DNA from: Schmidtea polychroa
Lineage: Eukaryota
Reading direction: 5' to 3'
Assembly (NCBI GenBank): GCA_044892525.1
Contig: CM097885.1
Span: forward strand, 264,120,001 to 264,184,000
DNA length: 64,000 nt
The notes beneath the pieces were generated by a model. The model did no database searches, was not told the origin of the DNA, and worked only from the letters and a program-made list of their open reading frames with translations. This document shows positions 15,600-64,000 of the stretch, in pieces; the first letter of the stretch is position 1, and the number at the start of each line of letters is the position of its first letter. The position numbers and the translations under genes are program-made.

Positions 15600-15820
15600 A
15601 GATCGAGTTGTCGAATAGTCCAACCGGTCAGAAGGAAGAAGATTGAGCTGTTGAATAGTGCCAGCCAGTCGTAAGATCGAGTTGTCGAATAGTCCAACCG
15701 GTCAGAAGGAAGAAGATTGAGCTGTTGAATAGTGCCAGCCAGTCGTAAGATCGAGTTGTCGAATAGTCCAACCGGTCAGAAGGAAGAAGATTGAGCTGTT
15801 GAATAGTGCCAGCCAGTCAT
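15600..15820 (+). repeat. Three copies of the same 74-bp unit as 4863-5280 (reverse complement)
   Basis: gatcgagttgtcgaatagtccaaccggtcagaaggaagaagattgagctgttgaatagtgccagccagtcgtaa is the exact reverse complement of the element 1 unit. Confidence 0.97.
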
Positions 15821-25378: not shown

Positions 25379-26747
25379 ATGATAATGTTTAATGGCTCAT
25401 CAGAGAAGGAATTTTCCGAGAAAAATTTTGAAACTAAAGAAGACGTAGAAAGAGTTTATGTCGATTGGCCTGAAATTGATTCCGAGGAATTTCGTTTTAT
25501 TAGCAGCAGACTGGAGGATGGAGACAGAGAGATGACTCCGTTATATCTCCAGCATCATATGCAAGATAATGAATACAAAATATTTGACATAAACCAATTA
25601 AGATTTGGAGATAAATCCACTAGCGGACCTGTGGCCAATGACAGGTTATTAAATTAACCGCACGCATTTTATAATATTATTTTTTGTTTAAATCGAATCA
25701 TTTTCATAAATTTTCGCAATTAAAACAAACTTGTACCCAATTCTGGACATGGACAATAATGAAAGCAATTTTATAAAATGAAAAGAGTAATACTAACTAT
25801 CCCCCCCTAACCCGCCGTCTAAGTAAATAAGCTTTTTAAACTTCTTTGACAATACGGAAACACTTTTTTAAGTTTTAAATGTTGAATTGTATACCAGATA
25901 GGCAAAAGATTACAACAACAAGGGGAGTTAGAATTTCTTTAAAGCCCTTCATAAACATATCCAGGTAATTCGATTTGGTGAGGAGGTTTAGAGAGGTTAA
26001 TTATATATATATCTATATTTATTTTATTTTGTTCGATAGCAATAGATCAATAAATTCATAAGGATAACTGCAAATAAAATTTAGCCAATCAATCTTAGAA
26101 TATTTATTAGACGTGGGAAAATAATATGAAAGTATATTATGAATAATTAGTAAATAATAAATAAATATTATTTAAATATATGAGAAATGATTGCTAATGG
26201 AAGGTTTTGTTTTTTTCATTCGTTTTTGNNNNNNNNNNNNNNNNNNNNNNNNNNNNNNNNNNNNNNNNNNNNNNNNNNNNNNNNNNNNNNNNNNNNNNNN
26301 NNNNNNNNNNNNNNNNNNNNNNNNNNNNNNNNNNNNNNNNNNNNNNNNNNNNNNNNNNNNNNNNNNNNNNNNNNNNNNNNNNNNNNNNNNNNNNNNNNNN
26401 NNNCCTTTTGCTGCAAATAATGTATTTAATGAAAGAATTTTCGACTATAAGATAGTCCTTGGAGATTGACAAGGACTATCTTATAGTCGAAAATTCTTTC
26501 ATTAAATACATTATTTGCAGCAAAAGGCTTAAATTATCATTTTATTGTTTTAAACAATAAATTCTGCTACCAAGCAATCATCATTTTATACTAATAATAA
26601 TAATAATAACAATATTATAAGAACTCTTTTCAAATTTCACCACTGATTTCTTTTCAATCGACATTGTCTTTATTAAAAAGCTTGATTATGAATCAGTAAT
26701 TATATCAAAAAAACATCGATATATTTACTGATTCATAATCAAACTTC

Positions 26748-35800: not shown

Positions 35801-38800
35801 TATTTTATTATTCTATAACTAAATATGACAATGTCAACTTTTAAATTTCACAAAATTATTGTTTTTGAAAAGACATTTCCACCTCAAATTTTCCTATAAT
35901 CAAAATTGGCATTTTTACGGATTTCCGATTTTAACATTAAAATTTACAAATCCATATTTCAAAATGTATAGAAAATTAATTTTCTATTAGATAATAATAG
36001 ATCAATAAATTTTTTGAGGATAACCACTATCAATTAATAATCTTCTGCTTATATTTACTGTAGGAACATAAAAATAATTGGTACAATATATTTATTGAAT
36101 TCCACATCTTTGTACCAAGTGTATCTGGTATTTGCGAATATAAGAATTGCATTACATTTCATTGAATATGACTCTCCTGATTTCGGGTTGTTTGGACATT
36201 TAATTGTGATGTTGCAGTCTCCATTTTCCGAGCGTAATTGATGATTTGAACTTGATAGGTTGATTCACCAATTTTTCCAATTCGAGAGTTTTGAGCACAA
36301 TTTGATGGATTAAAAAAATGGAGATGTTCGGAAGAAGTCTTCTGCATATAAAAATAATGTATTTTAATTAATTTAATTTAATAATTTATTTGCAATTTAA
36401 TTATTAAATTGATATATTAATTAATTTGAAAGTCAGAGGCACTACATTTACTAAACTAAACATAGATATAGAAATATAATAAAGATATCCCTAGTAAAAT
36501 TTGTCAAATAAATTCCCATATGCATTCGTGAGGCTTTGTCAGTAAAATATTATATACAAAAAGAATTAATTAAGACTTAAATTTATTAGTAAATTGGTAG
36601 CGGTTAAGTATTGGGGGGGGGGGGTTGTTATAATAAATTTATTTGCCATTCAAATTGACATTAAAATTGAAATTTTTGCGAAATTATTCCTGTTTAGCAT
36701 CTAAATATCCTGGAATAGTTACAGGGTTGCCACATGTTGAAAGGCCCAAAGTAGGACAAATCAATAGCCTGCTACAGTAGTACGTAAGACAAATATCCAA
36801 ATTGTAGGACTGTCCTACCGTAAGTAGGACGTATGGCAACTCTAAATAGTAGCCATGTACACAAATGCTTTAGGTCTAATTCTTTTTGCAAATTTAGCTT
36901 TTCTTAATTTACAATGAATTCTCACAAATGAGAATTCAGTCAGAGGCGTCACTGGGTTTTCAGCGCCCTTGATAAATTTCAATTTTGCAAATTTTCAATC
37001 GTTACAAAAAAATAATTGAATTTCTCTTATTCGTGAAAATAATTACATAATAGGCATACATGAATATCAAAACCAAAAAGACAGAAAATACTAAATAATC
37101 AAAATATATTGAAGGATACTTTTGCGTTAGTACACCACTATTTGATCTACTATAAACAATAATGGCAATGTGTCATATTCATACATAAAAATAGAAACAT
37201 ACAATTAAAAGTTATTTAAGTAATAATAAATCCGGAACAATCATAGCTCTATATCAAAAGTTCAAAGCTTAACTTTTCTTGTTTGAATGTATGTAGAAGT
37301 AGTGATTATTTCATCGACGTTTTCTTGACTGGTAAGTGAATGTTCAATGCGCGTTGTAGAGACATACAACTAAATCGAATAAAGATTTTATTCAAAAAGA
37401 CATTGAAATAACTAATGGAGATATCAGCTCCAGTAGTCAATGTTCCAACGAAAGCACGGACACTTGATCTGGCGATTGTACAGAGATTGTTGATGATCTT
37501 GAATTTTAGCATGTAGACTCCATTATCGTATGATGCGAAAGTATTTGGATCTTTGCCTGGAAAACTTTGTCTTATATTGCTCTAGTTGCTCATATACGGT
37601 ATTTACAACAATTGCTTTTGAATACTATCTTGTGTCTGTATGTTTCTTCAGGTTGATTTCAGTGACTGAGGATAATAAAATGTCACAACATTTGCATCAA
37701 TGCAGACCTTGTCCACACCTATCAAATTAAGAATATGTTCACAACATGTACTATACCGAGTAAGTGGATTCTCTTTATGAGGTACGGATTGAGCTCTCTT
37801 ATACTTCCCTGACATGTTTGCCCAATTATCTTAGCCTTGATCACGCACATTTTCAAGTGATAAACCATTTTAAATTAATGCTGCTTTAATTTCTAAGACA
37901 ATTCCTTCTCCAGTTTTTTCTGTTGTGTTTATGAAACCAAGGAACCTCTCTTCAATTGTATATTTATTATCTGACAATTTCACATACCGAATAATTTCGG
38001 TTAATTGGTTTTTGTGTGATACTTCCGTAGTTCTATCGAATATTATACTATAATATTTAGCTCAGTGGTTCTCAATTAATATAAAAGCGCGGAACAACAT
38101 TCACATGATTTTTTTATGCGGAACACTGACAAAAAATACTTGCCCACAATGAGTGACCAATCACAAATTACTATAAATCTGTCGTAAACGTAAACAATGC
38201 CTCCTTATAAGCAAAGAAAATACCACGCGCAACAATAACAAGCAATAAAAACACTTTTATATTTGTATGTTTATATATCTGTGTAACGGCTTTCTTATTG
38301 AATCATCTTATAAAAAAATTAATTGAGGTTTTTGATGATATTTATCTTAAATGCAAATTTATAGATAAAATGTCATTTTTTCGCGGAACACTGATGTTGT
38401 CAGTAAAATATTATATAAAATATTATATACACCATCTTGTTCATGTCCATGAAAAGCCAAATTGTTTTCAGCACAAAACAATATACATTTTTCATATTGC
38501 AATCAGGGGCGGATATTCCTATAGGTTATCTAGGCTTCACTTTAGGGCGTCAAGATCAAGACGGGCTTATATTCAAATTGTTAGCAAAATTGAAATAGCA
38601 CTATTCTAAACGGTGAACACTGAAACACTGGACCGAAAATAATGAGAAATTCAACGCATTCAGCTCATTGATATCTCCAATTTAGTTCGGTAATATGAAA
38701 CACGTGTTAATAAGGCGTCATGAGAGGAATAGCCTAGGGCCTCTCTTCATCTAAATCCAGCCCTGATCTGGCAATGCTGCTCATTATACAAATAAATTAA

Positions 38801-42569: not shown

Positions 42570-44446
42570 CAACTGAAAATGATTAGAGGAGCTTCAAAGC
42601 CAAATTTCCGTAAAAGTATATAAATTTCGGGTTATTAATCGATACCGGATAAAGATAAACCAAGTTGCATCGGTCAAACAGTTTTGGAGTTATGTAAACT
42701 GCAAATGTATGATCTTTGGCTAATTATCGAAATCAATTAAATTGCATTATCAACATTGTTGCGAGTGACAAAGAATCCTTAATAGACTCTGATAGGATAA
42801 TTAAATGAAAAAAATTGTGGTATTTTTTATAAAGATTGGATATTTCTGCGACCAAAATGTTATAGTTTTTGATTCTCCTATTTTTGAGTTGTTTCGATAT
42901 TCAATTGCGATGGTGCAGCCTCCATTATTCGAGCGTGATTATTGATTTGTTCTTAACGTATCCATTGACTAAGTGTTCTGTGATCGGAGGACTAGTTGGA
43001 GTATCAGCAGCAGCTTTGCAAAATTTAGCATTTGTAATGTGCATCCGATATAGAGGAGACATTTCGTGCATACACTAATTTTTCCAATTCCAGAGTTTTG
43101 AGGACATGGAGAGTAGTAGGATTGGAGCTCCCCCGGCCACATACACCCCCTCCCCCCCGGAAAAAAAATTTTTAGAACGATGCCACATATTTTTAGAACT
43201 ATTACGTGATCGATGCCTAATATTTTTAGAACTATTACGTAATCGATGCCACATACTTTTAGAACGATGCCACATATTTTTAGAACTATTACATAATCGA
43301 TGCCACATATTTTTAGAACGATGCCATATTATTAGTGGCCCAGCGGGCTCACACTTTTTTTCATCCCAAAGGTTAATGTTCCCGCCATCAGATTTTATTG
43401 GACGATACCTCATCTTAAAGCCCAGTGCAGGACCTTTAAGATGTGCTATAGGTATTTTATATATCTTTAATAGTTTTAATGTTATTAACTTTTAATGACC
43501 ACCATCTTTTCAAAGTTAAATTATTATTATTTGTCAAAATATTATTAATTGGCCCAGCGGGCAAACACTTTTATTCATCCCAAAGATTAATGTTCCCGCC
43601 AACATATTATATTGATCGATAGCTTATTTTAAAGCTCTGTGCAAGACCTTTCTAATGAGATATAGATTTTTATCATACGATGACTCATCACATTTTTAGA
43701 ACAAAGACAATGACTCATCATATTTTTAAATCGATGCCTAATATTTTTAGAACGATGCCTAATATTTTTAGAATGATGCATAATATTTTTAGAATGGTGC
43801 CTCTTATTTTTAGAATGATTACGTCATAATTTTAGAATGATGCATAATATTTTTAGAATGGTGCCTCTTATTTTTAGAATGATTACGTCATAATTTTAGA
43901 ACGATGTCTAATATTTTAGAATGTTACCTAATATTTTTTAGAATGATTACGTCATAATTTTAGAACGTTGCCTAATATAATTAGAACGATTACGTCATAA
44001 TTTTAGAACGATGTCTAATATTTTAGAATGTTGCCTAATATTTTTTAGAATGATTACGTCATATTTTTTAGAACGATGCCTCTTATTTTTAGAACTAATA
44101 ATTTTGTTTCAATTATCGATTACATAATAATTTAATTTTGTTTAAATCGTTGATTATATAATTTTGTTTAAATCATTGATTACATATTATTATTTTTTAA
44201 TTTTCAATATTTTCTTTTAAAATATTAACGCACGCGTGGAAGTTGTTATTATTATATATAATCTATCCGACAAGATATTCTGTCCCCCTATGGGTAATGG
44301 TCACAAAGGTACTGCTAAAACTTTAACATATTATTACACACAATGTAGAAAAAATATTATTAGTGTCCACACATGCTACAAGTTAGTATTCCCATCGATA
44401 GCTCATCTTAAAGTCTAGTGTAAGATCTATCTAATGATATATTATT

Positions 44447-44610
44447 NNNNNNNNNNNNNNNNNNNNNNNNNNNNNNNNNNNNNNNNNNNNNNNNNNNNNN
44501 NNNNNNNNNNNNNNNNNNNNNNNNNNNNNNNNNNNNNNNNNNNNNNNNNNNNNNNNNNNNNNNNNNNNNNNNNNNNNNNNNNNNNNNNNNNNNNNNNNNN
44601 NNNNNNNNNN
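44447..44610. other. Assembly gap (inside the left arm of the Polinton-type element)
   Basis: N run. Confidence 1.
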
Positions 44611-44872
44611 CTGCGCGAAAGATGTTATTATTATTATGATTATTATGATTATTATTATATAATCCGAGTTTATCCGACAAGATATTCTGTCCCCACACAC
44701 ACATTCTATATACACATACCTTATTATTTTAAAGTAACACGCGCGGGAGTTATTATTATTAACAAAATATCTAAAATATGGTTTACACTAACACAACCCA
44801 TTAACAATTATTATTATCTATATTAGTGAAAACCTAAAATATTTTTACACACACAACCCATTAATAATAATA

Positions 44873-44907
<35 letters not shown>

Positions 44908-45261
44908 GCGCACGGGAATATTATTATCATATATACTCATAGTCTATCCGACAAAATATTCTATCCCCCTCTATGGGTATTGCTCATATGGGTAATGGTC
45001 AAAAGTGTACTACTCACATTCAACATGTCTCAAAGGGTATAATATAATTATTATTAAATTCTGACCAACTTAAATCAATGAAGGGGTAGAACAAAAATAT
45101 ATTACGTTGCGGTATTTTAAATTTAAAAATATTTTAAAAACTTATTTTGACACTAAAGTTTAGTTAATTAACAAAGACATAATTATTGCACATACTTTGC
45201 ATAAATATTATTATTTTTTAAATTTTCAATATTTTCTTTTAAAGTATTAACATGCGCGGGA

Positions 45262-45323
<62 letters not shown>

Positions 45324-46632
45324 TATTATCAATATTATTATTATCAATATTAGTGAAAAACCTAAAATATTTTTACACACATATACAACCCATTAAACTT
45401 TATTAATATTATTATTATTATTATTATAATTATTATTATTATTATTAGTGAAAAAACCTTAAATAATTTTTACATACTAAGTTATGGGGTAGAGTATTAT
45501 TATGTTTGCAGTATTCTGTGTTTGCCTTTACAGGAAGTTGTCAATAAGGAGCGATAATTTTACACTAACATTCTATATACACATACCTTGTTTAACATGG
45601 GTGTATATATTCCTAGTTTATCCGACAAAATATTCTGTCCCCCTATGGGTATTGGTCGTAATGGTACTACTCACACTCAAATGTTTTCGATTTTAAAGCA
45701 CATTATGGTTTATTAAGGTTATTAAATAAAACTTATCACACACACTATTTTTAATAATATTTAAACGATAAAAATCAAGACAAGAGAGGACAAGGCAAAG
45801 TGTATGCATTTAGTATTGCCAGGCCTAATGAGCAGTGACCAAATATCTGTGCCTGAAAGACACGGTGGATATTTGTTCGCGTCCACAAGGGTCGTCTGTG
45901 CCTTCCCCAAGTGGGGTCAGAAGAACCTGGGCATTATAGCTTTCCGTATGGAACATTACGCCTAGCATGGGTAGTCAACTACCAGCACATTCGAAACGTA
46001 TAATTTCAAAATACATGCGTCATTGGCACTATAACCAAATTAATTAATGTTTTCACTAACACAAATATATATTTACAGAGGCCTCCCACTAGTTGGATTA
46101 CAACCGCCCACCACGACGATCAGCTTGTAAATATATATTAATTAAGGAATAAAGAGGACCCACCCAACTCTACTATATTTAATTTACAAATTTTTCTCGC
46201 TCTTCTGTTGGTAATCTATCTCAAAAAAAAAAAATCTATCTCACCATTTTGTCTGATTCATTTTCTTCATAATCATATAATTCATTTTCTTCATAATCAT
46301 ATAATTCATTTTCTTCATTACTAAGTAAAATAATTAAAATATTGTAGTAAATTCTTTATTTACTTACTTTATGGATACTAAAACGAAAGAAATAAAGTTA
46401 TATCAAAATTATATTTAAATAATCTAAATTTAAATAATTTAAATTTAGTATTTAAACATATTTAAACACTTTAGTTATTTAAGCATATTTAAACATTATT
46501 ATATAGTATAACTTTATAAAATATTATAATATTATAATTTTATGTATTCTAAATTTATTAATAAATATAGTATAATTTTATATAATATTATGTATTGTAA
46601 ATTTAATATATCCTTCATTTAATTTTTTAAAT

Positions 46633-47064
46633 TCAAAAATTTATAATGAAGATTCTTTGAATTAAAAAATATTCTGTTAGTATTTCCAGGTAGAAATCAA
46701 CGAATTCAATAATTAAAATCTTAATTTTCATGTTGTTAGGGTTGTGGCCAAAAGTTAATCGCCATCTAATCGTTTGTTCAGTTATCAGCCTGTTCTCAAT
46801 TTTGCTCATTTTGTTCAAAACATTCAGGTGAGTTGTTATCTGGAAAGTTTCTTTGAGCTCAGTTTTGTTAAAACACTCACGGTATTTTCGAGGGACGTGA
46901 CACTGGAAATAAATTAACAATGGGTGGTCATCCATACATGTTGTTAGTCTGAGCTCTCGATTTATTTTAGAAATAGGTATATTAAAAACATTTAAGTTAT
47001 CATTCAGTAAAATAATATAATATTTTTGAGTTAATTTATAAATAACAGTATTTTGATATATCAA
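46633..47064 (-). CDS. 143-codon hypothetical ORF, left-arm copy (TTG start, no in-frame ATG upstream)
   Basis: Longest open frame in the element; identical translation in both arms; no recognised domain. Confidence 0.35.
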   Translation of the reverse strand: MIYQNTVIYKLTQKYYIILLNDNLNVFNIPISKINRELRLTTCMDDHPLLIYFQCHVPRKYRECFNKTELKETFQITTHLNVLNKMSKIENRLITEQTIRWRLTFGHNPNNMKIKILIIEFVDFYLEILTEYFLIQRIFIINF

Positions 47065-50000
47065 TAAAGACCATATACTCCGAGTTTATCCGACAAAATA
47101 TTCTGTCCCCCTATGGGTATTGCTAGCAAGGGTACTGGTCACATTCAACATATCGCAAGGGTATATTAATCAGTTAGAAATTCTTAGGTAATTTAGTGAG
47201 ATGATCACAAATTCGTGAATATTTTAAATGTAACTTTACACTTTTGTCGAGCGACTAATTTATTGGTTAATATTTTAGACATTTAAAGCAAAAGGTAATT
47301 TATTCATCTAATGTTCGTTACAATAGTTAATAATATGAGAAAAACATGGTCATTATTCATTGATAATTTTAAATTCTTTATCATTTGGAGTAAATTTGTT
47401 CGAGGCAAAAATATTTAAAGGAGTCATAATAGAAATATGGTTATCATTTAACCAAATAAGGTGCTTATTAGTTAAAAATACATGTTCATATAGGGTTACA
47501 ATTCTTTTCTAATTTAATTAAATGATCATTAGGCGTAATATATCTTTTCGAGAAATTTAAGATGTTTGAGTAACCAAAACATGGATATTTTGTGCGATAA
47601 ATTTATGAATATTGGTTAATTTTGTTATTTTTAGTCATTTAAAATAATATTTAGCAAAGGTAATTTAGCAAAATATCATTTATCCACCCGATAACAATAT
47701 CCCTTCAATAGATTAACTGATATTCAACCTATTTAATTTCTAATTAAAATCATAAATTTCCTTCAATAAAGTTAAAATTTCTTTAGTTGTCGATGTCCAA
47801 CTCTTTTAAGTCTATATTTTTGTTACCGTTATCTTCATAATGAATGTCCGTCTTTAACATGTTAAATAAAATAATTTAAAGCAATAACCTTTGATATCAA
47901 TTATCTCTAAATATTTCATTGGCAAGACCAAGTAAATTAGTCATTAACCCTAAACACTTTGATAAAATCCTGGATAATTAATAGACTATTTCCCTTGAAA
48001 CATTTCCAATAAGAACATCACCCATTTAAATATTCAAAACATTTCCACCCTAACCGATCCCTCACCAAATATTTCTACCCCTTTAAACATTCAACCGACT
48101 ATATACTATATATTCCCAACTTAACCGAACCCTCACTAAATCCAACCGACTATATCTCTTAATTTCAACCACTTGAGCCCTTTAATATATTTTAAAATCT
48201 ATAGAAAATTCTTCAAAATATGAATTTTATTTAATTGTTACAGACATTTTTCCATTGAAATAATTTAGTAGCTAAATTCAAAGAGTCCACTTAAAGATCA
48301 AAATTCATTAAAATAAATATTTAACCACGTGTATCATCAAATACCTAACTAGAGATGATAATATCTCATTGATTGATCATAATTATAACCATTATAACAT
48401 GATATATCTTTCAAACTAAATCACAAATTTCAGTATATTTTACAATAATTTTCAAGTAGATTTCAAATATATCATCATCGTGATAAAATTAGCTGGTTTC
48501 AACTTTAGATTTTCAATATTTTAAAGTTCATCAATGTGTAAATATTCTTAGAAAAATATATGAAAAAATTATTTAGTCAAATTATCATTACAAAGTCATC
48601 ATCATCATCAAAATTAATAAAATATAGCAAATTATCAAGAAATTAACTAAATTTGTCTTAGAATTAACAATAAACCTTAAATATTCTTTCAATTAACATG
48701 AAATTCACAAAAACAATGTTAGTAAAATCCCGCTAACGCTAAAAATTACCAATGAATTTAATGCCAAATAATAACCAAAAATTTGCCTAAATAAAACACA
48801 CCAGTACCTTTACGACCAATACCCATCAAATTGAATCAGTCAAATTATCACAAATTTTAATAAAAAATCTTATTCTAAAGTGGTAAGCAGCGTAGAATCG
48901 AAAGATAATTTTAATAACACAGAGATAAAATTAACAATATTATTCTCAGGTGGTAAGAATATTTTATTTTTGAGTCTGTTATCCCTCTATTATATACCGA
49001 GAAGTGTCATAAGATGGAAATATATTAATTGCATTTATTTAATATTATTTCATGAAATTCATAAAAATTTATAAAAATGATCACTTTAATAAAAAAAAAT
49101 ATTTAATTCAATGTTCAAAGAAATAGTTGTTGGGAGGATTAGTGGAAAATGGGGGGGGGCTATAAGTGATGAGGATTTATAAATTATTTCTAATATATGA
49201 GTGACTAACGAATTAAAATATTTTAATAATGTGATAAACATTTATTTTGATAAAGTATTTAATCCAAAAATGACAAACATACATAACAAATGGTATTCGA
49301 CTAAGCAAATATGATAACTTTATATTTTAAATTTTGATTAACTCCTTTAATATTGAATTAATAATTATGATATTTGCTATTTTACATTAAATATTTCAAA
49401 AACAGATATTCTAAAAGATAATTTAAGATACATTACTCTTTTTAATCAAAATGATCTCTCAAAGTTAAGAAGGAAACAAAGTGTGTCAGAACACATACCC
49501 AGAATTAACTTTACTTAAATTTATGAAAACATCAAGTAAGCAATGATAATAGAGGGATAACAGACTCAAAAATAAAATATTCTTACCACCTGAGAATAAT
49601 ATTGTTAATTTTATCTCTGTGTTATTAAAATTATCTTTCGATTCTACGCTGCTTACCACTTTAGAATAAGATTTTTTATTAAAATTTGTGATAATTTGAC
49701 TGATTCAATTTGATGGGTATTGGTCGTAAAGGTACTGGTGTGTTTTATTTAGGCAAATTTTTGGTTATTATTTGGCATTAAATTCATTGGTAATTTTTAG
49801 CGTTAGCGGGATTTTACTAACATTGTTTTTGTGAATTTCATGTTAATTGAAAGAATATTTAAGGTTTTATTGTTAATTCTAAGACAAATTTAGTTAATTT
49901 CTTGATAATTTGCTATATTTTATTAATTTTGATGATGATGATGACTTTGTAATGATAATTTGACTAAATAATTTTTTCATATATTTTTCTAAGAATATTT

Positions 50001-51475
50001 ACACATTGATGAACTTTGAAATATTGAAAATCTAAAGTTGAAACCAGCTAATTTTATCACGATGATGATATATTTGAAATCTACTTGAAAATTATTGTAA
50101 AATATACTGAAATTTGTGATTTAGTTTGAAAGATATATCATGTTATAATGGTTATAATTATGATCAATCAATGAGATATTATCATCTCTAGTTAGGTATT
50201 TGATGATACATGTGGTTAAATATTTATTTTAATGAATTTTGATCTTTAAGTGGACTCTTTGAATTTAGCTACTAAATTATTTCAATGGAAAAATGTCTGT
50301 AACAATTAAATAAAATTCATATTTTGAAGAATTTTCTATAGATTTTAAAATATATTAAAGGGCTCAAGTGGGTGAAATTAAGAGATATAGTCGGTTGGAT
50401 TTAGTGAGGGTTCGGTTAAGTTGGGAATATATAGTATATAGTCGGTTGAATGTTTAAAGGGGTAGAAATATTTGGTGAGGGATCGGTTAGGGTGGAAATG
50501 TTTTGAATATTTAAATGGGTGATGTTCTTATTGGAAATGTTTCAAGGGAAATAGTCTATTAATTATCCAGGATTTTATCAAAGTGTTTAGGGTTAATGAC
50601 TAATTTACTTGGTTTTGTCAATGAAATATTTAGAGATAATTGATATCAAAGGTTATTGCTTTAAATTATTTTATTTAACATGTTAAAGACGGACATTCAT
50701 TATGAAGATAACGGTAACAAAAATATAGACTTAAAAGAGTTGGACATCGACAACTAAAGAAATTTTAACTTTATTGAAGGAAATTTATGATTTTAATTAG
50801 AAATTAAATAGGTTGAATATCAGTTAATCTATTGAAGGGATATTGTTATCGGGTGGATAAATGATATTTTGCTAAATTACCTTTGCTAAATATTATTTTA
50901 AATGACTAAAAATAACAAAATTAACCAATATTCATAAATTTATCGCACAAAATATCCATGTTTTGGTTACTCAAACATCTTAAATTTCTCGAAAAGATAT
51001 ATTACGCCTAATGATCATTTAATTAAATTAGAAAAGAATTGTAACCCTATATGAACATGTATTTTTAACTAATAAGCACCTTATTTGGTTAAATGATAAC
51101 CATATTTCTATTATGACTCCTTTAAATATTTTTGCCTCGAACAAATTTACTCCAAATGATAAAGAATTTAAAATTATCAATGAATAATGACCATGTTTTT
51201 CTCATATTATTAACTATTGTAACGAACATTAGATGAATAAATTACCTTTTGCTTTAAATGTCTAAAATATTAACCAATAAATTAGTCGCTCGACAAAAGT
51301 GTAAAGTTACATTTAAAATATTCACGAATTTGTGATCATCTCACTAAATTACCTAAGAATTTCTAACTGATTAATATACCCTTGCGATATGTTGAATGTG
51401 ACCAGTACCCTTGCTAGCAATACCCATAGGGGGACAGAATATTTTGTCGGATAAACTCGGAGTATATGGTCTTTA

Positions 51476-51907
51476 TTGATATATCAAAATACTGTTATTT
51501 ATAAATTAACTCAAAAATATTATATTATTTTACTGAATGATAACTTAAATGTTTTTAATATACCTATTTCTAAAATAAATCGAGAGCTCAGACTAACAAC
51601 ATGTATGGATGACCACCCATTGTTAATTTATTTCCAGTGTCACGTCCCTCGAAAATACCGTGAGTGTTTTAACAAAACTGAGCTCAAAGAAACTTTCCAG
51701 ATAACAACTCACCTGAATGTTTTGAACAAAATGAGCAAAATTGAGAACAGGCTGATAACTGAACAAACGATTAGATGGCGATTAACTTTTGGCCACAACC
51801 CTAACAACATGAAAATTAAGATTTTAATTATTGAATTCGTTGATTTCTACCTGGAAATACTAACAGAATATTTTTTAATTCAAAGAATCTTCATTATAAA
51901 TTTTTGA
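51476..51907 (+). CDS. 143-codon hypothetical ORF, right-arm copy
   Basis: Mirror of 46633..47064. Confidence 0.35.
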   Translation: MIYQNTVIYKLTQKYYIILLNDNLNVFNIPISKINRELRLTTCMDDHPLLIYFQCHVPRKYRECFNKTELKETFQITTHLNVLNKMSKIENRLITEQTIRWRLTFGHNPNNMKIKILIIEFVDFYLEILTEYFLIQRIFIINF

Positions 51908-52279
51908 ATTTAAAAAATTAAATGAAGGATATATTAAATTTACAATACATAATATTATATAAAATTATACTATATTTATTAATAAATTTAGAATACATAA
52001 AATTATAATATTATAATATTTTATAAAGTTATACTATATAATAATGTTTAAATATGCTTAAATAACTAAAGTGTTTAAATATGTTTAAATACTAAATTTA
52101 AATTATTTAAATTTAGATTATTTAAATATAATTTTGATATAACTTTATTTCTTTCGTTTTAGTATCCATAAAGTAAGTAAATAAAGAATTTACTACAATA
52201 TTTTAATTATTTTACTTAGTAATGAAGAAAATGAATTATATGATTATGAAGAAAATGAACCAGACAAAATGGTGAAACA

Positions 52280-52345
52280 CTAAAGGAGTTATAGTTCCGG
52301 ATTTTTTAAATGAATTAGATGATTGTGGGTGTCCTTCAACATGAA
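52280..52345 (+). pseudogene. Tiny Helitron/PIF1 helicase-like fragment in the asymmetric part of the right arm
   Basis: VIVPDFLNELDDCGCP.HEL resembles the Helitron helicase EFLN.L...G.P.H.L motif. Confidence 0.45.
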
Positions 52346-53311
52346 TTATTAGACTTAAATTATGTAAACTTTCTTTCCGCGAATGTCAAGAAAAATGGGA
52401 AAAACCGATGTTTTATCAATTAAGTAAAGTACTCGTCATACCTGAAGAATATTATTATTAATGTAAGATATGAATTAATTCTTTAAAATATATATATTAT
52501 ATTTAGGTATCTGTGTTTTATGGTGGGAAATGACATTGAAAAAGTATACCACAAATAACAGTTGCCTAATTTATCAAGCTTGTGATGATAAAATGTTAGA
52601 TAATGTAAGTTAATTGCTTTTAAATCAATATAAATTTTAGCAATGATAGTTGACACCACATCAGAAACTAAGAAATATGTCCAATTCGCAAGATGTATTC
52701 CATGAAATCACTATCAAATGGCCTGATGGAGAGATTAATTTTGAGATAGATTAAGTTTTATTTAATAACCTTAATAAACCATAATATGCTTTAAAATCGA
52801 AAACCTTTACCATTACGACCAATACCCATAGGGGGACAGAATATTTTGTCGGATAAACTAGGAGTATATACACCCATGTTAAACAAGGTATGTGTATATA
52901 GAATATGTGTGTAAAATTATCGCTCCTTATTGACAACTTCCTGTAAAGGCAAACACAGAATACTGCAAACATAATAATACTCTACCCCATAACATAGTGT
53001 GTAAAAATTATTTAAGGTTTTTTCACTAATAATAATAATAATTATAATAATAATAATAATAATAAAGTTTAATGGGTTGTATATGTGTGTGTGTGGAAAA
53101 AATATATTTTAGGTTTTCACTAATATTTATAATAATAATGGTTAATGAGTGTTTTTATGTTTTTGACTAATATTTGCAATAATAATAATGGTTAATGGGT
53201 TGTGTGTGTGTGTGTAATAAATATTTTAGGTTTTCACTAATATTGATAATAATAATTGTTAATGGGTTGTGTGTGTGTAAATAATATTTTAGGTTTTTGA
53301 CTAATATTTGC

Positions 53312-53380
<69 letters not shown>

Positions 53381-53491
53381 GTTTAATGGGTTGTATATGT
53401 GTGTAGAAGATATTTTAGGTTTTCACTAATATTGATACAAATAATTGTTAATGGGTCGTGTGTGTGTGTAAACCATATTTTAGATTTTTTG

Positions 53492-53533
<42 letters not shown>

Positions 53534-54180
53534 TTTTTAAAAAATAATATGACCTTGGGAATGACCTTGACAATATAAATGACCTTGATGAGTCATCACG
53601 ATGAGTCATATGACCTTGAAAATAATAAATGACCTTGAAAATAATATTTTGAAAAATAAATGGCCTTGAAAAATGGTCTCGGGAAAACTTTAATAACTTT
53701 GCCGATGTTAATGATGATGATACCTTCTAAAGCTCATTCGAAAGGTCTGGCACTAAGCTTTAAAATAAGCTATCAATTAATAAATTCGGATAATTGGAAC
53801 GATAACGTTTGGGCAAACGAAAACCAGGAGCTCCCCCGGCCACATATAATATTTTGAATAATAATATATTTTAACTATGAAAATAAGGTGGTCATCATTT
53901 ATTAATACCTTTGTCAATATTACTGATGATGATAATCTTTATACATCCGTAGATAGATCTTGCACTGGGCTTTAAAATGAGCTATCGTCCAATAAAATCT
54001 GTTGGCGGGAACATTAATTTTTGGGATGAAAAAAAGTAGGAGCCCGCTGGACCAATTTAAAAAAAAATGACTTTGACCTTGACCTTTTATTTTTTTAAAA
54101 AAAATTTCCCGGGGGGGGGGGGGTGGGGGGTATATGTGGCCGGGGGAGCTCCTGGCCGGGGGAGCTCCAATCCTACTACT

Positions 54181-54672
54181 ATGGAGATGTTTGAAAGAAA
54201 GTATATGTATTCAATGAAATGTAATGTTATTCCTAAATTCGAAAATACCAGATGGACTTGATACAAGAACGGTCAATTAATTAATAATGATAAAAGCATT
54301 ATTTTTGATGAATTGAGTTGACAGGATTTGGTTTCATACAAAAGTACTGTTAAAGGAACTACTGAAAATGGAATTGGAATCCTTAACATTTCAACAAGCA
54401 TAAGAAAGTCGATACCGAAAATGAGAATAGAAAAACGAGAATCAATCGATTACAATAGAAAATCATTAGAATACTCTGTAAATATCATATCTTCTTTGGA
54501 ACAATATGTTATTGGTCAAAGATTCTCAATGAAATGTATTGTGAAGAAAAATCTTCAAAACACCAAATACACATTGTACAAAGATATGGAATTCGATCTT
54601 CCAATAGAAATGGAAACTTTGGAGCTGCTAAAGCCTAGTCAATCTATATATGAAGAAATTGATAAAACTTAA
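54181..54672 (+). pseudogene. Ig-domain gene relic interrupted by the Polinton-type insertion (exon start at ~43095 on the other side)
   Basis: SFEDME|MFERKYMYSMKCNV...RWT*YKNGQLI...ELS*QDLVSYKSTV (decayed C..WYKNG..DxGxYxC), then a second FSMKCIV...YTLYKD repeat. Confidence 0.7.
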
Positions 54673-55479
54673 AACGATCAATATATTTTACCAATTATTC
54701 TTATGTTCCTACATGTAGAACGAAGTTTTTGATGCTTTATTGGTCAAGATATTGTTTGTGTAAATCAATCCTCTTGCTTTTATATTGTTAATAATAAAAA
54801 TTATGAATTTTGTAAAGTGTTTTAAATTAATGGACATGTTGGGTTTTGACTCCACCTGTTCATTTAATTAAAAATAACGAAAAAACAAACTACCAAACGT
54901 ATATTGAATCACAAAATATTTCTCAATCAATGGCCAAAGTTGTATGAGTTTGACTGATCCCCCGCTCGGTGTTGATGCTTTGTCAAAATCGTTATTAATA
55001 TTCACCTCATTATTATCCTTGATCCTTCCAATGAGTTCCCTTTTGCCTATTCTCAAATTTCTTCTTAAAATCCTTATCTGGATCTAATGCCGGTTTGTTC
55101 ATTCCTTTTTTATTCTTCCAAATCTGGATGACAAATGGTTGCCGAGCCAATCTCTCCCCTGAAATTCAGCTCCACATCTCCGCCTCGGCTGTCACCCGAA
55201 TTTTTTTTGTTCTTAGTCTTCTCATTAGAATTGTACAAAAATCTTTAACAGATCCTGAAAATTCTCTTTCAAAAGTTTCATTACTATATGGCGGCATGTT
55301 CGCATCTGGAATTTATGATTATGGACAGGATGAAAATCATCTCAACTGAGAAATTACGACCATCATCATCCACAGTACCAGGCAATGTTAAGTTGATTAA
55401 GCAAACGTTTGTTCTATATAGGAATACATGAAAACGTACAGAAAATTTGCAGAAACTATACGAATCCTTATTATCTTTC

Positions 55480-55600
55480 AAGTTAGATTCAACTAATGTT
55501 GAGAGAGATTTTAGTGTATCAAGCGGCTTTTGTAGAATAGTTCGGTCAAGACTGTCATATACATTTCTAAATGTTTTCGTTATTCAGAAAAAGGTATAAA
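55480..55600 (+). pseudogene. hAT dimerisation-domain fragment
   Basis: STNVERDFSVSSGFCRIVRSRL. Confidence 0.6.
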
Positions 55601-56091: not shown

Positions 56092-58523
56092 ATGCGGTTT
56101 TCACTTATTTGTTTTGTTGTTTTAATGTGGTCCATCAGTGCTGATGTCCCTGATTTCATTGATATGTCCGCATTCTCCCATAGCATGACCGCTGTTATGG
56201 ATGATAAATTTATACAATTCAGGATTAATTCACCCGACATCACAATGAAAGTAATTTCAATGCATTTATGAAATGTTCCCATTTATCATTCAGATTGAAT
56301 GTGCCAAATGCGATTACAAAAGAAAGGATCAGAGAATAACTTGCCTAGGAAATGAATTAGTAGAAATATCTGTAGAACTAAAGAAAGGCAGTAAGTCCAT
56401 AAAAACACCTCTCAATGTCAGCTGTAATGAGAAGGCCATTAATGAACACGGTGTGCGAGCAATCCATGAGACAATAGGCCCCCACAGGATCATCATTTCA
56501 TGGGATACCCCTTCTCATGATATAATTTATTATTTATTACATCTCAGCAACACGTGAGCATATTTATTTGACCTTCACCTGATCCGTCAGCATATTAGAA
56601 ATGGCACTTATAGTCACAGAATCATCAATAACGCAAGGCCATACGCACCATTCACGGATCTGAATGAGAAATCCTGGTATCAGATTTGTATGGCATCAAT
56701 TGATATGAAATGGATCACCAGCATATTCATATGCAAACAGATATTAACGGATTTCTCCATCACAGGTCCAGTGACAAATGTCAATGCCAGTGCAGATTCT
56801 CATGCAATATATTTGTCATGGGACAAACCGGAATACCAATACGATATTCCGCAGGGTTATATTGTTCATGTCAAGGGCAATCATGCGCAATGGTGCCGCA
56901 CAATAATAATAAGCATGGTTATCATTGATATGTTTTGAGAATGGATTAATGTGGTTCATCTAGACTGATAATGTGCCGATCACAAACCCGGATCAAACAT
57001 GCCAACGGCAGGATCACCAATCATGGACACGACTGCAGCAACTAGAAATAAAGGATTTGCACGCATATTCCAGTTTCACAATAAATATTATCCCATACAA
57101 CAAGAATAAACCGCAGGCCCCCCAGTCAATATCAATAGTTACAAAACAAGGAGGCAAAATATTGAATTTTCATATATTTGTGGTGATGATTTGATCTGAT
57201 TCAGAAAGCGGACCAGTGAAAAAATTGGAAATCAAAAACCATAAAGAGAATTTCATGCTGATTGGATTCAAGGAGCCGCCAATGCCGAATGGAATCATTG
57301 AGAAATATCGAATCAGAATCATCCAGCACAAAATCAATATGTGCAATCAAGTAATTGTGATAATTAATTCAATTAGAAATCAATAAATTGAATATAGACC
57401 AATCAAATCGTTCACAAATCGCATTTCATGGGCAAGACAGAAGGTTGGGTGGGTTTGGGGAGTGCTAATCTATGTGGATTATATTTGTTGGAGGTGGCAC
57501 CGATAAATGGGTGGCACATCAATGATGGAGTGGGCAAATTATCCGCAATATCATTCCGTCTCCCATCCGGTAAATCTATTTACTTTTATTTCTTTGTTTA
57601 TATAGTTGATATAAATATTAATTATCTAATTTCATATATTTACCTTATCAGTTGAGGCCTCCCCAATATCAGTAAATGTGCAATTCCAATCCCAGAATTC
57701 AATCATATTACATGTGAATGAGCTGCACCGGAATGCGCAATGTCAGCCAATGGGATTCGCTGTAGCAATAACCAATACAAATAATCAAATTGATTGTGCA
57801 ATCAATATATTCACAAATATTAAGTGCAAAAATTTAGAAACTGTAAGATTAATTTCATTTTATTGAATGAGATCTTATTATTATTATTAAAATATCTCAT
57901 TTTTGATAAGAGAAATAAAACTAATAAAAAATAAAGTGATACACGGAATATCACAACCATTTGGGATCGATTGGTATCTCAAATTTCTGTAGCAGGAATT
58001 TTATTTAAACGAATGAGATTTGAAGTTGGAAACATGAGATTGTACGATAGGCATTTGAATTAGTAACTGCATGTGATATATGTTCAACAGCGATTTATAT
58101 CATTGATAACCAATGTAATTTTAACTAATTTCAATTTGGTTAAAATACATTTCAGATTCCAAATAACCTATAAAATATGGTATTTCTCCGCCATTCTGAC
58201 TATTACTATAAAAATATATAATATCAGGGCTAGGCATATAATCTTTGAAAATCTAACGTTAAATATGATTTCGAATTTTGGGGAAATGAGATTAAACTTC
58301 CTGAATCATGTCAAATATTCATTTCAATTTGTTTATATATGATGTTGAAACCGGTAAATACATTGGATTGTCAACTATCATTTGTGTTACGTCACCTTGT
58401 TCATATTTTTCAATCCATAATGAACTCAAAATTGGAATTCGAGTATCACCAATATTCGATAATATTGGTATATATCAGTGCTACACAAAATATTTTCAAC
58501 AAGTGCCAAAAACATTTTCTTAA
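56092..58523 (+). CDS. Signal-peptide, multi-fibronectin-type-III cell-surface/secreted protein (RPTP-ectodomain-like); 3' part damaged or unresolved
   Basis: Exons 56092-56250 (MRFSLICFVVLMWSISA), 56294-56553, 56599-56917, 56964-57153, 57205-57350, 57398-57569 and 57652-57842 join in phase via short introns (six of 43-82 nt). FN3 motifs IIISWDTP, GPVTNVNA..IYLSWDKP..GYIV and GPVKKL..EPPMPNGIIEKYRI. An in-frame TAA near 57931 follows, then Ig-like DNIGIYQCY. Confidence 0.75.
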
Positions 58524-58671: not shown

Positions 58672-60870
58672 TTATTTTAAATTATTTTCAAAGCTGTAAA
58701 TAATTGTTCGCAATATAATAAAACAAAACATTATTGAAACAGGAATGGCTTCAACATCAATAGTAAATAAATATATTCCTTGGATTTTCATTCTTTCCAC
58801 TTTCGCGTCTTTGTGTGCCAATAAACATTGTGTGCATGTTCCACATGTACTCCTTGGCAACATATCTGCATTTGCATGATCCGTACCTTTCCTCTGCTCT
58901 ATTTTAATAACCAGACTACTGAGGTAATTAATCCATGTCTGAAATTGCGTTGTTATTGGTTTCTTTGTGGATAACATAAACGTGATAGCTTTATGGTCCG
59001 TTCTCAAAATGAACCGTTTTTCATATAAATAATGATTTAAGTGTTGACAAAATTGATTGCCAGCAACTCTTTCCTTGTTATGCAATATCTTTTTTCATGA
59101 TTGCTCATTGCATGAGAACCGTATGCTATAACCTTTTCGCACCTGTTCTCATTTTTCTGTGATAATACTGTTCCAATCGTGTCAAAACTCGCATCAGTAT
59201 CCAGAATGAATTCTCTTTCAAAATCTGGAAACTCTAGGAAAGGTAAGGAAATTAAAGCATTTTTCATATTTTCGAATGCGATGTTGTATCCGTCAGTCCA
59301 AATTAATTTTTTCTGTTTAACCCGCATAGGTCTTTTAAAACTCTTGGCTTTTTTGCGTATTCTTTTATAAATCTTCTGTAGTAATTGCATATTCCTAGAA
59401 AGCTTCTCAGATTCTTAACACATTCTGGCTTTTCAAATGATTTAATTGCGTCTAGTTTTGACGGGTCTGTCTGTATTCCATCTTTGTTGATTATGTGACC
59501 TAAATATTTGACTTCCTCTTTAAGGATATGGCACTTTTTAGGGTTTATTCTAAGACCCGCCTTTCCAATTTTATCCAGCACTTTATTTAAAACTTCGTAG
59601 TGATGATTGATTGTTTCTGTAAATATCAAAATATCGTCTAGGTATACTGCTGCATATCTCGTACCCATTAATACTTTTCCCATCAGTTCCTGAAACGTTT
59701 ACAATGTTTAGTAGTATCGGGTTATTTAACTCTCTTGCGTCGTTTTCTCGACCTCTTCTACTGCCCACTTTAGCTGTATACTAAATTGTTTTTGCAACTC
59801 TATACCACCAATTACCTCTGGAGTCATATATCTTACTATCGTAAACTATTCTCTTCTTTCCTGCCATTTATTCCTATATCTAATATTGCTTTACCCTTCT
59901 TTTCTAAAACACTATTATTTGCACATCTCCATGTATCAGTCGTTGTGGTTAGTTCTAAATCTTTAAGTTTCTCAAATTTGCTCCAACTCATGACATTTAC
60001 TGTAGCTCCTGTATCTAGTAAGCATTCCATATTCTGGTCTTGTATTATAATAGTTACACTTGGTCGGCCTTGCATTTTATCATAACTAATAATATCATTT
60101 TTCCATTCATCTAATGTGAGTATTTGTATTTTGTCTCTTTCTATTTCTGAAAATCCATTAATCCATTAGTCAGCATCGTCGTAATTGTCTTCTTTGTTAT
60201 GCAATCTCTACTCAAATATCCGACCTTGTGACATCTCCAACATTCGTTCTTAGTTCTATTCGGTCTTTCTTCTAGATATTCTCTCGGCTTGCTAGTATAT
60301 CTTGCTGATACCGCTTCTCTGTAACCTCTTGTTATATTCTGTTCTGGCCTTCTTTCTCTCACTGCATAGATCTTTTCTGCAACTATACGAGATTCATGTA
60401 ACTTCTTGATTTTTTTTTCACTTCTGTTGTTCCTTTGGTGTCACTTAGACACAATTCTCATTTCAAAATCTTCTCGGTTGCACAGTGTACCAGCAGATAT
60501 TCTGTTTAACTTATGCCCAAATAATTTATCGATTAACTCGTCTATGATAATAAAATATTTATCCTCTGTAAAACTCGTTTTCTTGACGAATGCCTTCCGC
60601 AATCTTTCCTTATAACATTTGATATTTTGGTCAACTCCAGTATATATCTCTGATCTGTTTATCGATCAGTAATTCGATCATCACTTCTTGTCTTGAAGTA
60701 GGCATTTGTACCACTTTAAAATATTTATCGCATTCTTTTATCTCCTCTATGATAATCGTTTGGAAATAGCTTCTTTATGAAGAATTCCATAGACGTGGTC
60801 GACATATTAGAAGCTGCTAAAACATCTTCTAAATTATTTTTTTAATCCGGTTCAGAAGTTAACGTCATAA
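58672..60870 (-). mobile_element. Decayed Ty3/Gypsy internal region: gag knuckle, protease, partial RT, RNase H
   Basis: CWRCHKVGYLSRDC; LLDTGATVNVM; YAAVYLDDILIF; FILDTDASFDTIGTVLSQ; FILRTDHKAI. Frameshifts, and the RT N-terminal half is deleted near 59700. Confidence 0.92.
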
Positions 60871-61349: not shown

Positions 61350-62050
61350 ATGAACATTTGTTGATGAATTTTTTCATCATTGGTTTTTTTACACCTTCAA
61401 TAGAATTTCTTTCCGAATAAATATTTTTTATAGTCCGAGTGATTTTACTAATCCATTATCAAATATACCTTTACTAATATCATCGTTGATACTAAATTTG
61501 AATATTTTATTTTCTTCGAGTTCATCAATTTTAAAGACATTTGAGCAATTACCAGTCAAGTATTTATGTAATTCATCTATTGTCTTTATGAATAAATATT
61601 TTTTGAAATAATGTTTTTCTTCATTTGGAATTGTTAATATTATTTTTATTTTTTCTTCTTTTTTGAAAATAAAGTAAGCTTTACTATATATTATTTTGTT
61701 TAACAGTTTGTTTTTACGAATTCAAATCGCATTTTTTCGCTTGTTTAACTGTATCAAATTCAATGCTAAATGGATAGAAATCACTTATACTCTTTAGATC
61801 CTTTTCGACTATTCTAAAAAAACTATCTTCTTTCTCAAACTTATGTCTATCAATTTTGTTTTGAAATATAAAAGTATTGTAAATTTGTTGTTATTACATG
61901 ATATTTAATCTTTGAACTACTATAAAATGGAAATGGATTATACACAAGTGTGAAATCGAGCATTGCAACTTCCCAATGACCATAAAATAGAATTCTTGAA
62001 ATCAATAAAAAAATTGATTGCTTGATTATTAGGAAGGATTTGTGGAACAC
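61350..62050 (-). pseudogene. Polinton minor capsid (penton)-like relic
   Basis: YGHWEVAMLDFTLVY motif immediately downstream of a Polinton integrase; cut at 61343 by a hAT end (CAGTGGTCCCCAAA on minus). Confidence 0.5.
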
Positions 62051-62079: not shown

Positions 62080-63125
62080 GATTTTTTAGACTGATCTTTT
62101 GATGATCTCCATGTAGGGTTTTGATATTCATTCCACTTGACAAAGTATTGTTTATCCTTTTTTCAATTGTGGAATAACTTGAAATTCCTGCCCATTTAGT
62201 TTACCAACTATTTCATTATTACCAATATCTTTAATAACATACATGACAGGGTTTTGTTTAATATTAATTTTTGAAATTCGGAATATTTCATCACTCCAAT
62301 TACTATCAAATTTTTTAATAAATGGTGATGCACTAATTTTGATTATTTTAATATGATTACCAACTTCATATTTTGGTTTCTTAATTTTTCGATTTTTTTC
62401 GCGATAGCCATAATTTGAATTGATTTTTCAGATGAAATGTCTATTGGTCTCAAACTATTTAAACCTTTGTGTGGTGAATGATTATAACTATGTTAGATTT
62501 TTGGCAATCCACGTTTTTTACATTGATAAACAAAATAAATTTTTAAACGTTCTCTCAATATTCTATTAAAAGTTCGACGTGTACAGCTATATATTGGTAA
62601 TATAATGTGTAGTTATTAGCATCTTTTATAGATTGGTTCTCTTTACTGTTGTAAAATTTCTTTCCTAAATTAAAATCAAGAAAATATTGATGTTATACCC
62701 AAATCAGTTTGTAAATTATCAGGTGACCACCTTCAAATGTAGTATTTATAGCTTTAACCATATCATCCACAGGTTTTGATTTTACTTTAATTTCACGAGC
62801 AAAACGACTGAAAACATCAATACATGTCAAAATATATTTATATCCATAATTGATTTTTGAATATATGAGATCATTTCCATCAAATTCATTTGCCATAAAT
62901 CATTAATACCAAATGTTTTATATATTCTTGTTGGAAATCTTTCTACATTGGTTTGTTTAGGTTGTATACAAGCTGATTTGATAATCAGCGCTTTGTTTCT
63001 TTTTTTGAATTCATGGTTTCACTGAAACCTGATGAATATTTTGGGTTTGTCCATATATTCTTCATTGCGACAAGAAGATTTAAATATTATTTTAACATTA
63101 GGTAATGAAGAATTTGCACCCATTG
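62080..63125 (-). pseudogene. Polinton/Maverick rve integrase relic with C-terminal chromodomain-like tail
   Basis: YSKINYGYKYILTCIDVFSRFA; KYEVGNHIKI...NWSDEIFRI...YVIKD..NNEIVGK; YFVKWNEYQNPTW. Frameshifts. Confidence 0.88.
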
Positions 63126-63157: not shown

Positions 63158-64000
63158 TAGTGTTTCCAAACGAATAATCGAGTAACCGAGTACTCGTCTA
63201 TTTTCAGATATTTTCCATTATACGGTTAACCGGGTAATTTCGTCGAGTAACCGAGTAGTTACTTTAGATATAATTTTTTTTTCAAGCAAAAAATATCAGA
63301 AATTATGATATTGGTTGCTATAGTAACATTCAATATTTTCTATTTTTCTTAACTAAGCAAGCAAAATTATAAAATTCTTTAGAAAATCATCTTTAAGAAG
63401 CGAAATTTTAAAAAAATATACTAGCCAAAATGAGGGAAATTGTTTACGTTTGCTCTTAGATATAAAGACTAGATGGAGTTGTTTAGTATTGGCAACTGAG
63501 CAATTTTTAAAATTAATAAACTCAGTTAATCGTGCTTTGGTCGAGCTAGGGGTAGCGCCTTATAAAAATGATAATATTGAATTGTTAAAAGAAATTGTTT
63601 CAATTTTAGAACCGGCAAAAATAGCTGTTTTGGAATTGAGTAAACAAAATTCTAATTTATTGACTGGAGACGCAACATTACTATATGTGTTTCAAGAATT
63701 AGAATTGATTAAAACTCCGCTCGCGACAGAATTCTTGTTTAATTTGAAATCTCGAATTGAAAAACGTCGAAATAAAGAATTGGTTACTCTATTATCATTT
63801 CTACACCACGGCGTGTATCCTGAAAATAACAAATTTTTTGAATATTCAACTAAACATAAAGTTAAAGGATTTGCAACAAAAATAATGAACCGTTTATTTC
63901 CCAACGATTCTGAAAGTTCAAGCACTAATGAAGATGAGGAGCCTGAGTTGCTAAACCCATACAAGAAATTACAAAAGTGTATTTCTTCTACCTAAACACT
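63158..64000 (+). mobile_element. hAT (Ac/ZBED-like) element 5' end with internally deleted transposase, runs off window
   Basis: TAGTG start with CGAGTAACCGAGTA subterminal repeats; ORF 63450..63995 LLDIKTRWSCL...ILEPAKIAVLELSK. Confidence 0.85.

Follow-up and report, generated by a model that had tools for sequence, protein, structure and literature searches.

A probable non-autonomous, gene-less Polinton derivative with foldback-like arms in Schmidtea polychroa

We analysed a stretch of 64,000 nt from Schmidtea polychroa (assembly GCA_044892525.1, contig CM097885.1, positions 264,120,001 to 264,184,000 of the forward strand; this whole stretch is called the window and is numbered from its first letter) and found an element of 11,069 bp (43112-54180) with Polinton-type ends, long inverted arms and no detectable gene. 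The reading that we favour, with moderate confidence, is that of a non-autonomous, gene-less, Polinton-ended element that was inserted in trans, has the shape of a foldback element and acquired its arms by inward growth through arm-to-arm copying. Judged from its sequence, it is a probable non-autonomous Polinton derivative with a foldback-like structure that falls outside the Mutator- and P-type foldback families. The favoured reading draws on the ends, the duplication that flanks them, two different sub-terminal arrays, an identity between the arms that rises inward, and a short motif (motif M) that occurs in both the outer and the inner parts.

The termini of the element are inverted repeats that are identical at 28 of 28 positions and begin AGTAGTAG; the inverted repeat then continues imperfectly to ∼65 bp and further inward as a patchy mirror over kilobases. 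Directly outside both ends we found the hexamer ATGGAG (for a given 6-mer of similar composition, the chance of this is ∼1.5e-4). Thus both hallmarks of Polintons/Mavericks, an (AGT)2 or (AG)3 end motif and a 6-bp target-site duplication, are present, as a first-pass annotation of this DNA had proposed from its AGTAGT termini. Among vertebrate Mavericks, (AGT)2 termini flanked by a 6-bp duplication are described as the commonest end type (PMC8097293). In the emptied site, one reading frame runs across the two flanks with 4 stops in 232 codons, a value that was reached by 4 of 2000 shuffles. Moreover, a paralogue of the flanks at 36263-36330 contains a single ATGGAG, preceded by a 19-bp difference. 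As the flanks are collinear and this empty-site-like paralogue has one ATGGAG, the element is a true insertion with a 6-bp duplication, and its genuineness as one inserted unit is supported. The paralogue lies in a rearranged copy of the flanks (36110-36330), in which the left flank and the single ATGGAG are on the plus strand and part of the right flank is inverted just upstream. The open reading frame in the right flank (54322-54669) gave no Pfam or Atlas match.

Next to the 552-bp central spacer, the two inner arms (∼2.75 kb each) are 99.8% identical, with the boundaries that had been assigned to them earlier (46241-48993 and 49546-52275). Within 46281-48993 they differ by 5 substitutions, 4 of which are transitions, and one 1-bp indel; further differences at the outer tip are one 24-bp unit and a single substitution. 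We compared the arms in seven blocks picked from the alignments, counting substitutions only and excluding unaligned stretches. From the tip inward the identities were 28/28, 103/122, 145/204, 144/157, 284/293, 1641/1641 and 1067/1072; behind the tips, identity thus climbs inward from 71–84% through 92% and 97% to ∼100%. The outer parts are also unequal in length (3,129 bp on the left, 1,905 bp on the right), and ∼43680-44600, which includes a 164-bp N gap (44447-44610) that the first-pass annotation had passed over, is nearly devoid of a mirror partner. Of the 11,069 bp, 7,507 (68%) fall in the best collinear mirror chain and 8,030 in mirror matches of any kind, so that the earlier description of a near-full palindrome was too generous; the accompanying claim that the arms differ by only a few substitutions is correct for the inner arms but fails for the outer parts (71–97%). 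With a spacer of 552 bp, cruciform extrusion from duplex DNA is unlikely, and hairpins in single-stranded DNA or in read-through RNA from the inner repeat are possible.

The two outer parts differ in content as well. The left outer part has 23 occurrences of the word TTTTAGAA and the right one none, whereas TGACCTTG is absent from the left and is found 6 times on the right. Since no difference is seen at the 34 positions compared in the tips and the duplication, the adjacent 16–29% divergence must be older than the insertion, and the mobile unit would already have possessed a left end and a differing right end. Further inward the outer parts come closer to each other, with 44750-44906 92% and 45430-45735 97% identical to the right arm. 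In addition, the right outer part contains a 25-bp inverted copy of its own terminus (53824-53848), 282 bp inside the end, which replaces the start of one copy of a sub-terminal module (module A). This copy matches the right terminus including the tandem duplication of that end, and does not match the left terminus; we read it as a trace of local template switching. The end arrays (43165-44100, 43336-43673 and 53549-53646) are rich in the words TTACGTCA (five occurrences), TTCCCGCC and TGACCTTG, which we take to be host transcription-factor-like sites (bZIP-like, E2F-like and nuclear-receptor-like, respectively). This richness, with the site labels so presumed, is reminiscent of adenovirus termini.

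Motif M (core TATCCGACAA) has two sites on the right and five on the left, of which four lie in the outer modular zone (44264, 44671, 44945 and 45619) and one lies in the inner arm; it is found nowhere else in the window. A 15-nt linker shared by the two sides is placed crosswise: on the left it abuts the inner arm (46212-46226) and on the right the outer arm (52739-52753). A shared 15-mer was seen in 3 of at most 20,000 random pairs of 100-nt windows (the test window clipped the observed match to 14 nt, and the alignment shows 15). The simplest reading of the crosswise linker is that each arm once had outer block, linker and inner block in one uninterrupted run. The two asymmetric patches that interrupt this order, U1 on the left and U2 on the right, had been noticed in the first pass and lie at 45736-46211 and 52276-52735; they probably entered on opposite sides of the linker.

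Both patches have features of host DNA. In U1, 46081-46124 (minus strand) resembles the 5′ Alu domain of signal recognition particle (SRP) RNA with 29.6 bits, against an Rfam gathering threshold of 70, and is the only Rfam match of the window at E up to 0.05; it may derive from a captured piece of 7SL or be a 47-nt exon flanked by AT-rich introns. We rejected U1 as a full SRP RNA, as only the 5′ domain fits and the folding z is -0.64, and also a Kelch-like reading, which had no PDB match and whose 5 matches among 1.84 billion proteins amount to repeat-protein noise. U2 contains two putative GT-AG introns of 36 and 44 nt, and joining across them leaves a phase-compatible frame with 4 stops in 126 codons, compared with 10 and 15. 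Two such introns were found in 0 of 5000 shuffles, with the pattern defined after seeing U2; a single further match to the pattern lies in the inner arm, and the 52,931 bases outside the element have none. Against PDB, the best U2 match (ribosomal S14, E 0.11) was not significant.

The element was proposed to be gene-less, and we detected no gene in it by Pfam comparison of segments, by stop-masked frames or by stop depletion. Its 53 stop-free segments gave a single, sub-threshold Pfam match (DUF7516, E 0.02), in a scan that did not take the left inner arm separately and covered the outer parts by 5 segments only; the stop-masked frames of U1, the spacer, the right inner arm and U2 gave 0 matches out of 24. 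The sensitivity of such profiles is limited, as a known integrase relic elsewhere in the window yielded rve in 1 of 10 pieces (E 0.002). Stop depletion had p values of 0.47–0.95 for U1, the spacer, U2 and the inner arm, compared with 0.027 for the integrase relic as a control. Neither Pfam nor the integrase comparison detected a protein-primed polymerase B, an integrase or a capsid module in the element, and a tRNA search found none.

The one long frame (51455-51904) matched a single protein among 108 candidates, P0001, which comes from a contig of 1,351 bp. P0001 tracks the inner-arm sequence through a frame change, reads TGA as tryptophan and includes motif M, and its residue identity of 77% corresponds in a simulation to ∼10% nucleotide divergence. 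From these features, P0001 is a spurious out-of-frame translation of another inner-arm copy, and the inner arm is thus a family sequence. With such a translation as its sole homologue, 51455-51904 was rejected as a gene; its reading as the N-terminus of a P-type ATPase was dropped too (Atlas score of 0.85, below the reliable range, with no backing from PDB and Pfam). Because the inner arms differ by 0.2% from each other and by ∼10% from the P0001 copy, they must have been equalised recently, either biologically or by assembly. The features of the element are collected in Table 1.

Table 1. Features of the element, its target site and the neighbouring integrase relic (window positions)
Feature	Position	Strand	Remarks
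Left target-site duplication ATGGAG	43106..43111	+	
Left terminus, perfect 28-bp inverted repeat starting (AGT)2	43112..43139	+	imperfect match runs ∼35 bp further, across poly-C tract
Left-specific tandem array, 21/33-bp units containing TTTTAGAA	43165..43333	+	
Two copies of ∼125-bp sub-terminal module A and linker	43336..43673	+	71–84% identical to right-hand counterpart
Second left-specific array, unit family as in 43165..43333	43709..44133	+	no mirror partner
Modular zone: four motif M copies, ATT microsatellites, 164-bp N gap	44181..45735	+	
Patch U1, unique, 39% GC	45736..46211	.	SRP-RNA Alu-domain-like stretch 46124-46081 (minus)
Linker (TAATCTATCTCAAAA...) directly before left inner arm	46212..46240	+	right counterpart adjoins outer arm
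Left inner arm, non-coding	46241..48993	+	motif M (47087) and an inverted part-copy (48800-48826)
Central spacer, unique, 552 bp	48994..49545	.	22% GC, no coding signal
Right inner arm	49546..52275	-	99.8% mirror of left; 51396-51928 matched by diverged copy elsewhere (P0001)
Patch U2, host-like gene fragment, two short putative GT-AG introns	52276..52735	+	introns 52463-52506, 52605-52640
Right linker (52739-52753), 97% block with motif M, microsatellite modules	52739..53549	-	
Right-specific ATGACCTTG array	53549..53646	+	
Two right-hand module A copies	53726..54057	-	inner copy begins with 25-bp inverted right terminal motif (53824-53848)
Right terminus, 28-bp inverted repeat	54153..54180	-	preceded by 16-bp tandem duplication (54137-54168)
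Right target-site duplication ATGGAG	54181..54186	+	
Broken Polinton-type integrase relic, outside the element	62085..63065	-	

Taken together, the Polinton-type ends, the 6-bp duplication and the lack of detected genes, the combination seen in non-autonomous Polinton derivatives, argue for insertion in trans by a Polinton integrase, in support of what had been suggested. At the same time the element has the foldback architecture of long modular arms with a tandem outer domain, an inner domain and a non-coding middle. Its 6-bp duplication and Polinton end motif are not those of Mutator- or P-type foldback families, which are defined by duplication length and transposase; Mutator duplications measure ∼9 bp.

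We propose that the ends of the element retained the signals that a helper needs in cis to copy and integrate it and that a Polinton integrase acting in trans would have inserted the whole element as a single unit. The arms may have been extended inward stepwise, one arm serving as the template to rewrite the other, and with such growth the youngest and most identical block would lie innermost. The copying could have occurred by chromosomal gene conversion or break repair, or by template switching in a folded displaced strand, routes between which one copy cannot discriminate. The two host-like patches of ∼0.47 kb would have been taken up at one homologous site, on opposite sides of the shared linker, and probably represent filler from the repair of a fragile spot; the inner arms would have been equalised recently.

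Several observations weigh against this reading. The analysis rests on a single copy of the element, and a search for others with the translated left terminal frame found none among 3,966 candidates. The N gap separates the left end from the remaining element. Parent genes of U1 and U2 were not found in the PDB, Pfam and protein-collection searches, and the U2 intron pattern is post hoc and lacks a match in the window outside the element. In Galileo elements the outer ends are conserved better than the rest (PMC4168063), whereas in this element that applies to ∼65 bp at the tips only. Finally, 1,641 bp of the inner arms are letter-identical, which is the pattern expected of a collapsed repeat.

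This last point leads to the alternative that fares best, a serious competitor where the inner core is concerned, although we think it rather unlikely: an assembly or amplification artefact, in which the ends and the duplication are real and the near-perfect inner repeat was created by a fold-back chimera or equalised when a collapsed multi-copy repeat was placed twice, possibly stitching different family copies together. Such an origin would fit the multi-copy nature of the arm sequence (P0001), the confinement of all 6 inner-arm point differences to the spacer side at 47922-48672 (p ∼0.004, post hoc) and the three N gaps in the window, one of them inside the element; whole-genome amplification is described to create palindromes that reach assemblies (PMC6218980). 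At the first base after another gap we observed a perfect hairpin with 58-bp arms and an 8-nt loop (26404-26527), itself a possible fold-back artefact. However, the arms differ at real-looking sites, mostly transitions and some of them >1 kb away from any unique sequence, the inner arms are free of gaps inside and at their borders, and the gap-free spacer joins an arm at both ends. Moreover, the crosswise linker implies that each side derives from an arm in which the inner block was present, and the older mirror blocks (71–97% identical) cannot be artefactual.

Improbable, in our view, is an internal-deletion derivative of an autonomous Polinton family with diverged terminal repeats of several kilobases, whose spacer would be a remnant of the gene region. 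The ends are indeed Polinton-type, a family copy of the inner arm exists (P0001) and Polintons with ∼2-kb, gene-bearing terminal repeats have been reported, as have mobile Polintons that lack polB (10.1101/2025.02.07.637071). On the other hand, the arms here measure ∼4.6–5.9 kb, compared with repeats of 46–1,447 bp given for vertebrates and 100–1,500 bp given generally (PMC8097293, PMC10748475), the spacer bears no coding trace, and U2 carries putative spliceosomal introns, of which intact Maverick genes are described as having none. Still less probable is a nested arrangement, in which a separate, younger foldback element (the inner 6-kb unit, 46241-52275) would sit in captured host DNA (U1 and U2) within an older Polinton derivative. 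Identity does jump sharply at the borders of this unit, with unique host-like sequence on both sides, but no flanking direct repeat of 2–12 bp was found at the 7 boundaries tried, and motif M and the linker are common to the outer arms.

The first-pass annotation had favoured a snap-back genome, in which a single end would have been duplicated by copy-back in the course of strand-displacement replication before integration, and we regard this model as very improbable: a Polinton-derived polymerase displaces strands (PMC3511435), adeno-associated virus yields symmetric and looped snap-back genomes of one moiety (PMC8235507), and the near-perfect inner repeat with its loop and the local template switching at the right end would suit this origin, but it predicts two identical ends and uniformly near-identical arms, and we found unlike end-specific arrays (23 versus 0 and 0 versus 6 words), outer parts of unequal length with 71–84% identity, two different cargo patches, and intact 28-bp tips and duplication, with which the outer divergence cannot postdate insertion. 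A one-step snap-back is therefore rejected for the whole element; a self-complementary stem with a central loop is present in the inner core only, and copy-back limited to that 6-kb core is possible. The element is no evidence for a defective-interfering class of Polintons, which had been suggested as well.

A bolder extension of the favoured reading, which we hold to be doubtful, is a satellite family of gene-less, foldback-shaped Polintons that would be copied and integrated by helpers, with arms growing by copy-back in the folded displaced strand, host DNA taken up at a shared stem hot spot, left-left and right-right snap-back daughters, spacer flips and a 2.7-kb hairpin RNA on read-through. 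If true, it would provide evidence at the sequence level for a single-stranded intermediate in the replication of Polintons, a model reportedly put forward by Kapitonov and Jurka in 2006. Under copy-back by strand displacement, left-left and right-right daughters as well as flipped spacers are expected, whereas chromosomal conversion does not predict such daughters, and the layered arm identities with the symmetric cargo site make the replication mode of Polintons testable from family copies alone. If the element is real, a foldback architecture familiar among Mutator- and P-type transposons reaches Polinton ends, and the element reveals which cis sequences are enough for mobilisation in trans.

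Among known systems, Polintons/Mavericks and their non-autonomous derivatives share with the element the (AGT)2 end motif, the 6-bp duplication, the inverted termini and the large size, but the element lacks a detectable gene, is mirrored over two-thirds of its length and contains intron-bearing, host-like cargo. By naming convention, Polinton-1N1_DR is presumably non-autonomous, and some palindromic nematode repeats are reportedly tied to Polinton ends. The former name appears in PMC9341505; for the anole, PMC3014272 gives no non-autonomous copies, and Polinton repeats are described as drivers of rearrangements (10.1101/2024.01.15.575659). A gene-less Polinton with multi-kb arms was not described among the literature matches listed, in a search that left Repbase and supplementary copy tables outside. 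The closest architectural match is Galileo copy 112 of Drosophila willistoni (P superfamily), which is 9,021 bp long, lacks a transposase, has arms of 4,246 bp and 4,680 bp, and contains captured fragments as well as unequal tandem arrays (PMC4168063). Like the element, the extended-repeat copies of Galileo combine a size of 9–11 kb and 4–5-kb arms with the recruitment of internal sequence, but Galileo has 7–8-bp duplications and a P-type transposase, and the element has Polinton-type ends and its most diverged parts outside. Repeat extension by recruiting internal sequence, with repair from the other arm, has been proposed (PMC4168063, PMC3573991), and such expansion is also reported for Polintons (PMC3573991).

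Foldback elements (FB, Tetris and those of sea urchin and Chironomus) likewise consist of flanking, tandem outer and inner domains around a non-coding middle, but are mostly Mutator-type, and the outer arrays of the element differ in sequence between its ends (PMC4079207). Pack-MULEs carry host gene fragments between inverted repeats and are moved in trans; they use a Mutator transposase, and the cargo of the element lies inside the arms and not in the centre (PMC6431247). The right and left ends of the element also separate it from viral self-complementary DNA. Adenovirus vectors deleted by recombination between internal inverted repeats form such DNA, which is looped, helper-dependent and contains one moiety twice. 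The same holds for the snap-back genomes of adeno-associated virus, with one moiety twice as opposed to the left and right ends of the element (PMC8235507).

The remaining parts of the window contain several further transposon-related sequences. The integrase at 62–63 kb, which had been named as a trace of the helper, is indeed Polinton-type and broken: it matches integrase-core proteins at 58–69% (6 of 144 candidates), one with a weak match to the chromodomain that is expected for Polinton integrases, and it is scattered over all three frames with several stops. It has no nucleotide similarity to the element and, as a broken relic, does not serve as evidence for a helper; it shows that Polintons occur in this genome, and nothing more. 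Downstream of it, 61431-61890 (minus strand) contains more broken frames, possibly of another Polinton gene, with no convincing Pfam match, and a hAT-like element (63160-64000) begins just upstream of it. A hAT-like C-terminal relic lies at 55432-55600, and two ∼350-bp copies in opposite orientation (31708-32067 and 38040-38391, 91.5% identical, starting CAGTGGTTCTCA) presumably represent a hAT-type miniature element. The GC-richer, decayed region 56130-57800 gave a weak fibronectin type III match (E 0.004), and 58672-60165 is a decayed gypsy pol with protease, reverse transcriptase and RNase H by Pfam. Finally, 818-8220 (minus strand) is a large gypsy-like element with a 789-aa Gag with zinc knuckles, a downstream ubiquitin-like frame, an upstream RING-finger frame and a strong strand skew; it resembles planarian Burro elements, and a segment related to it at 81% lies in the opposite orientation at 15596-16437.

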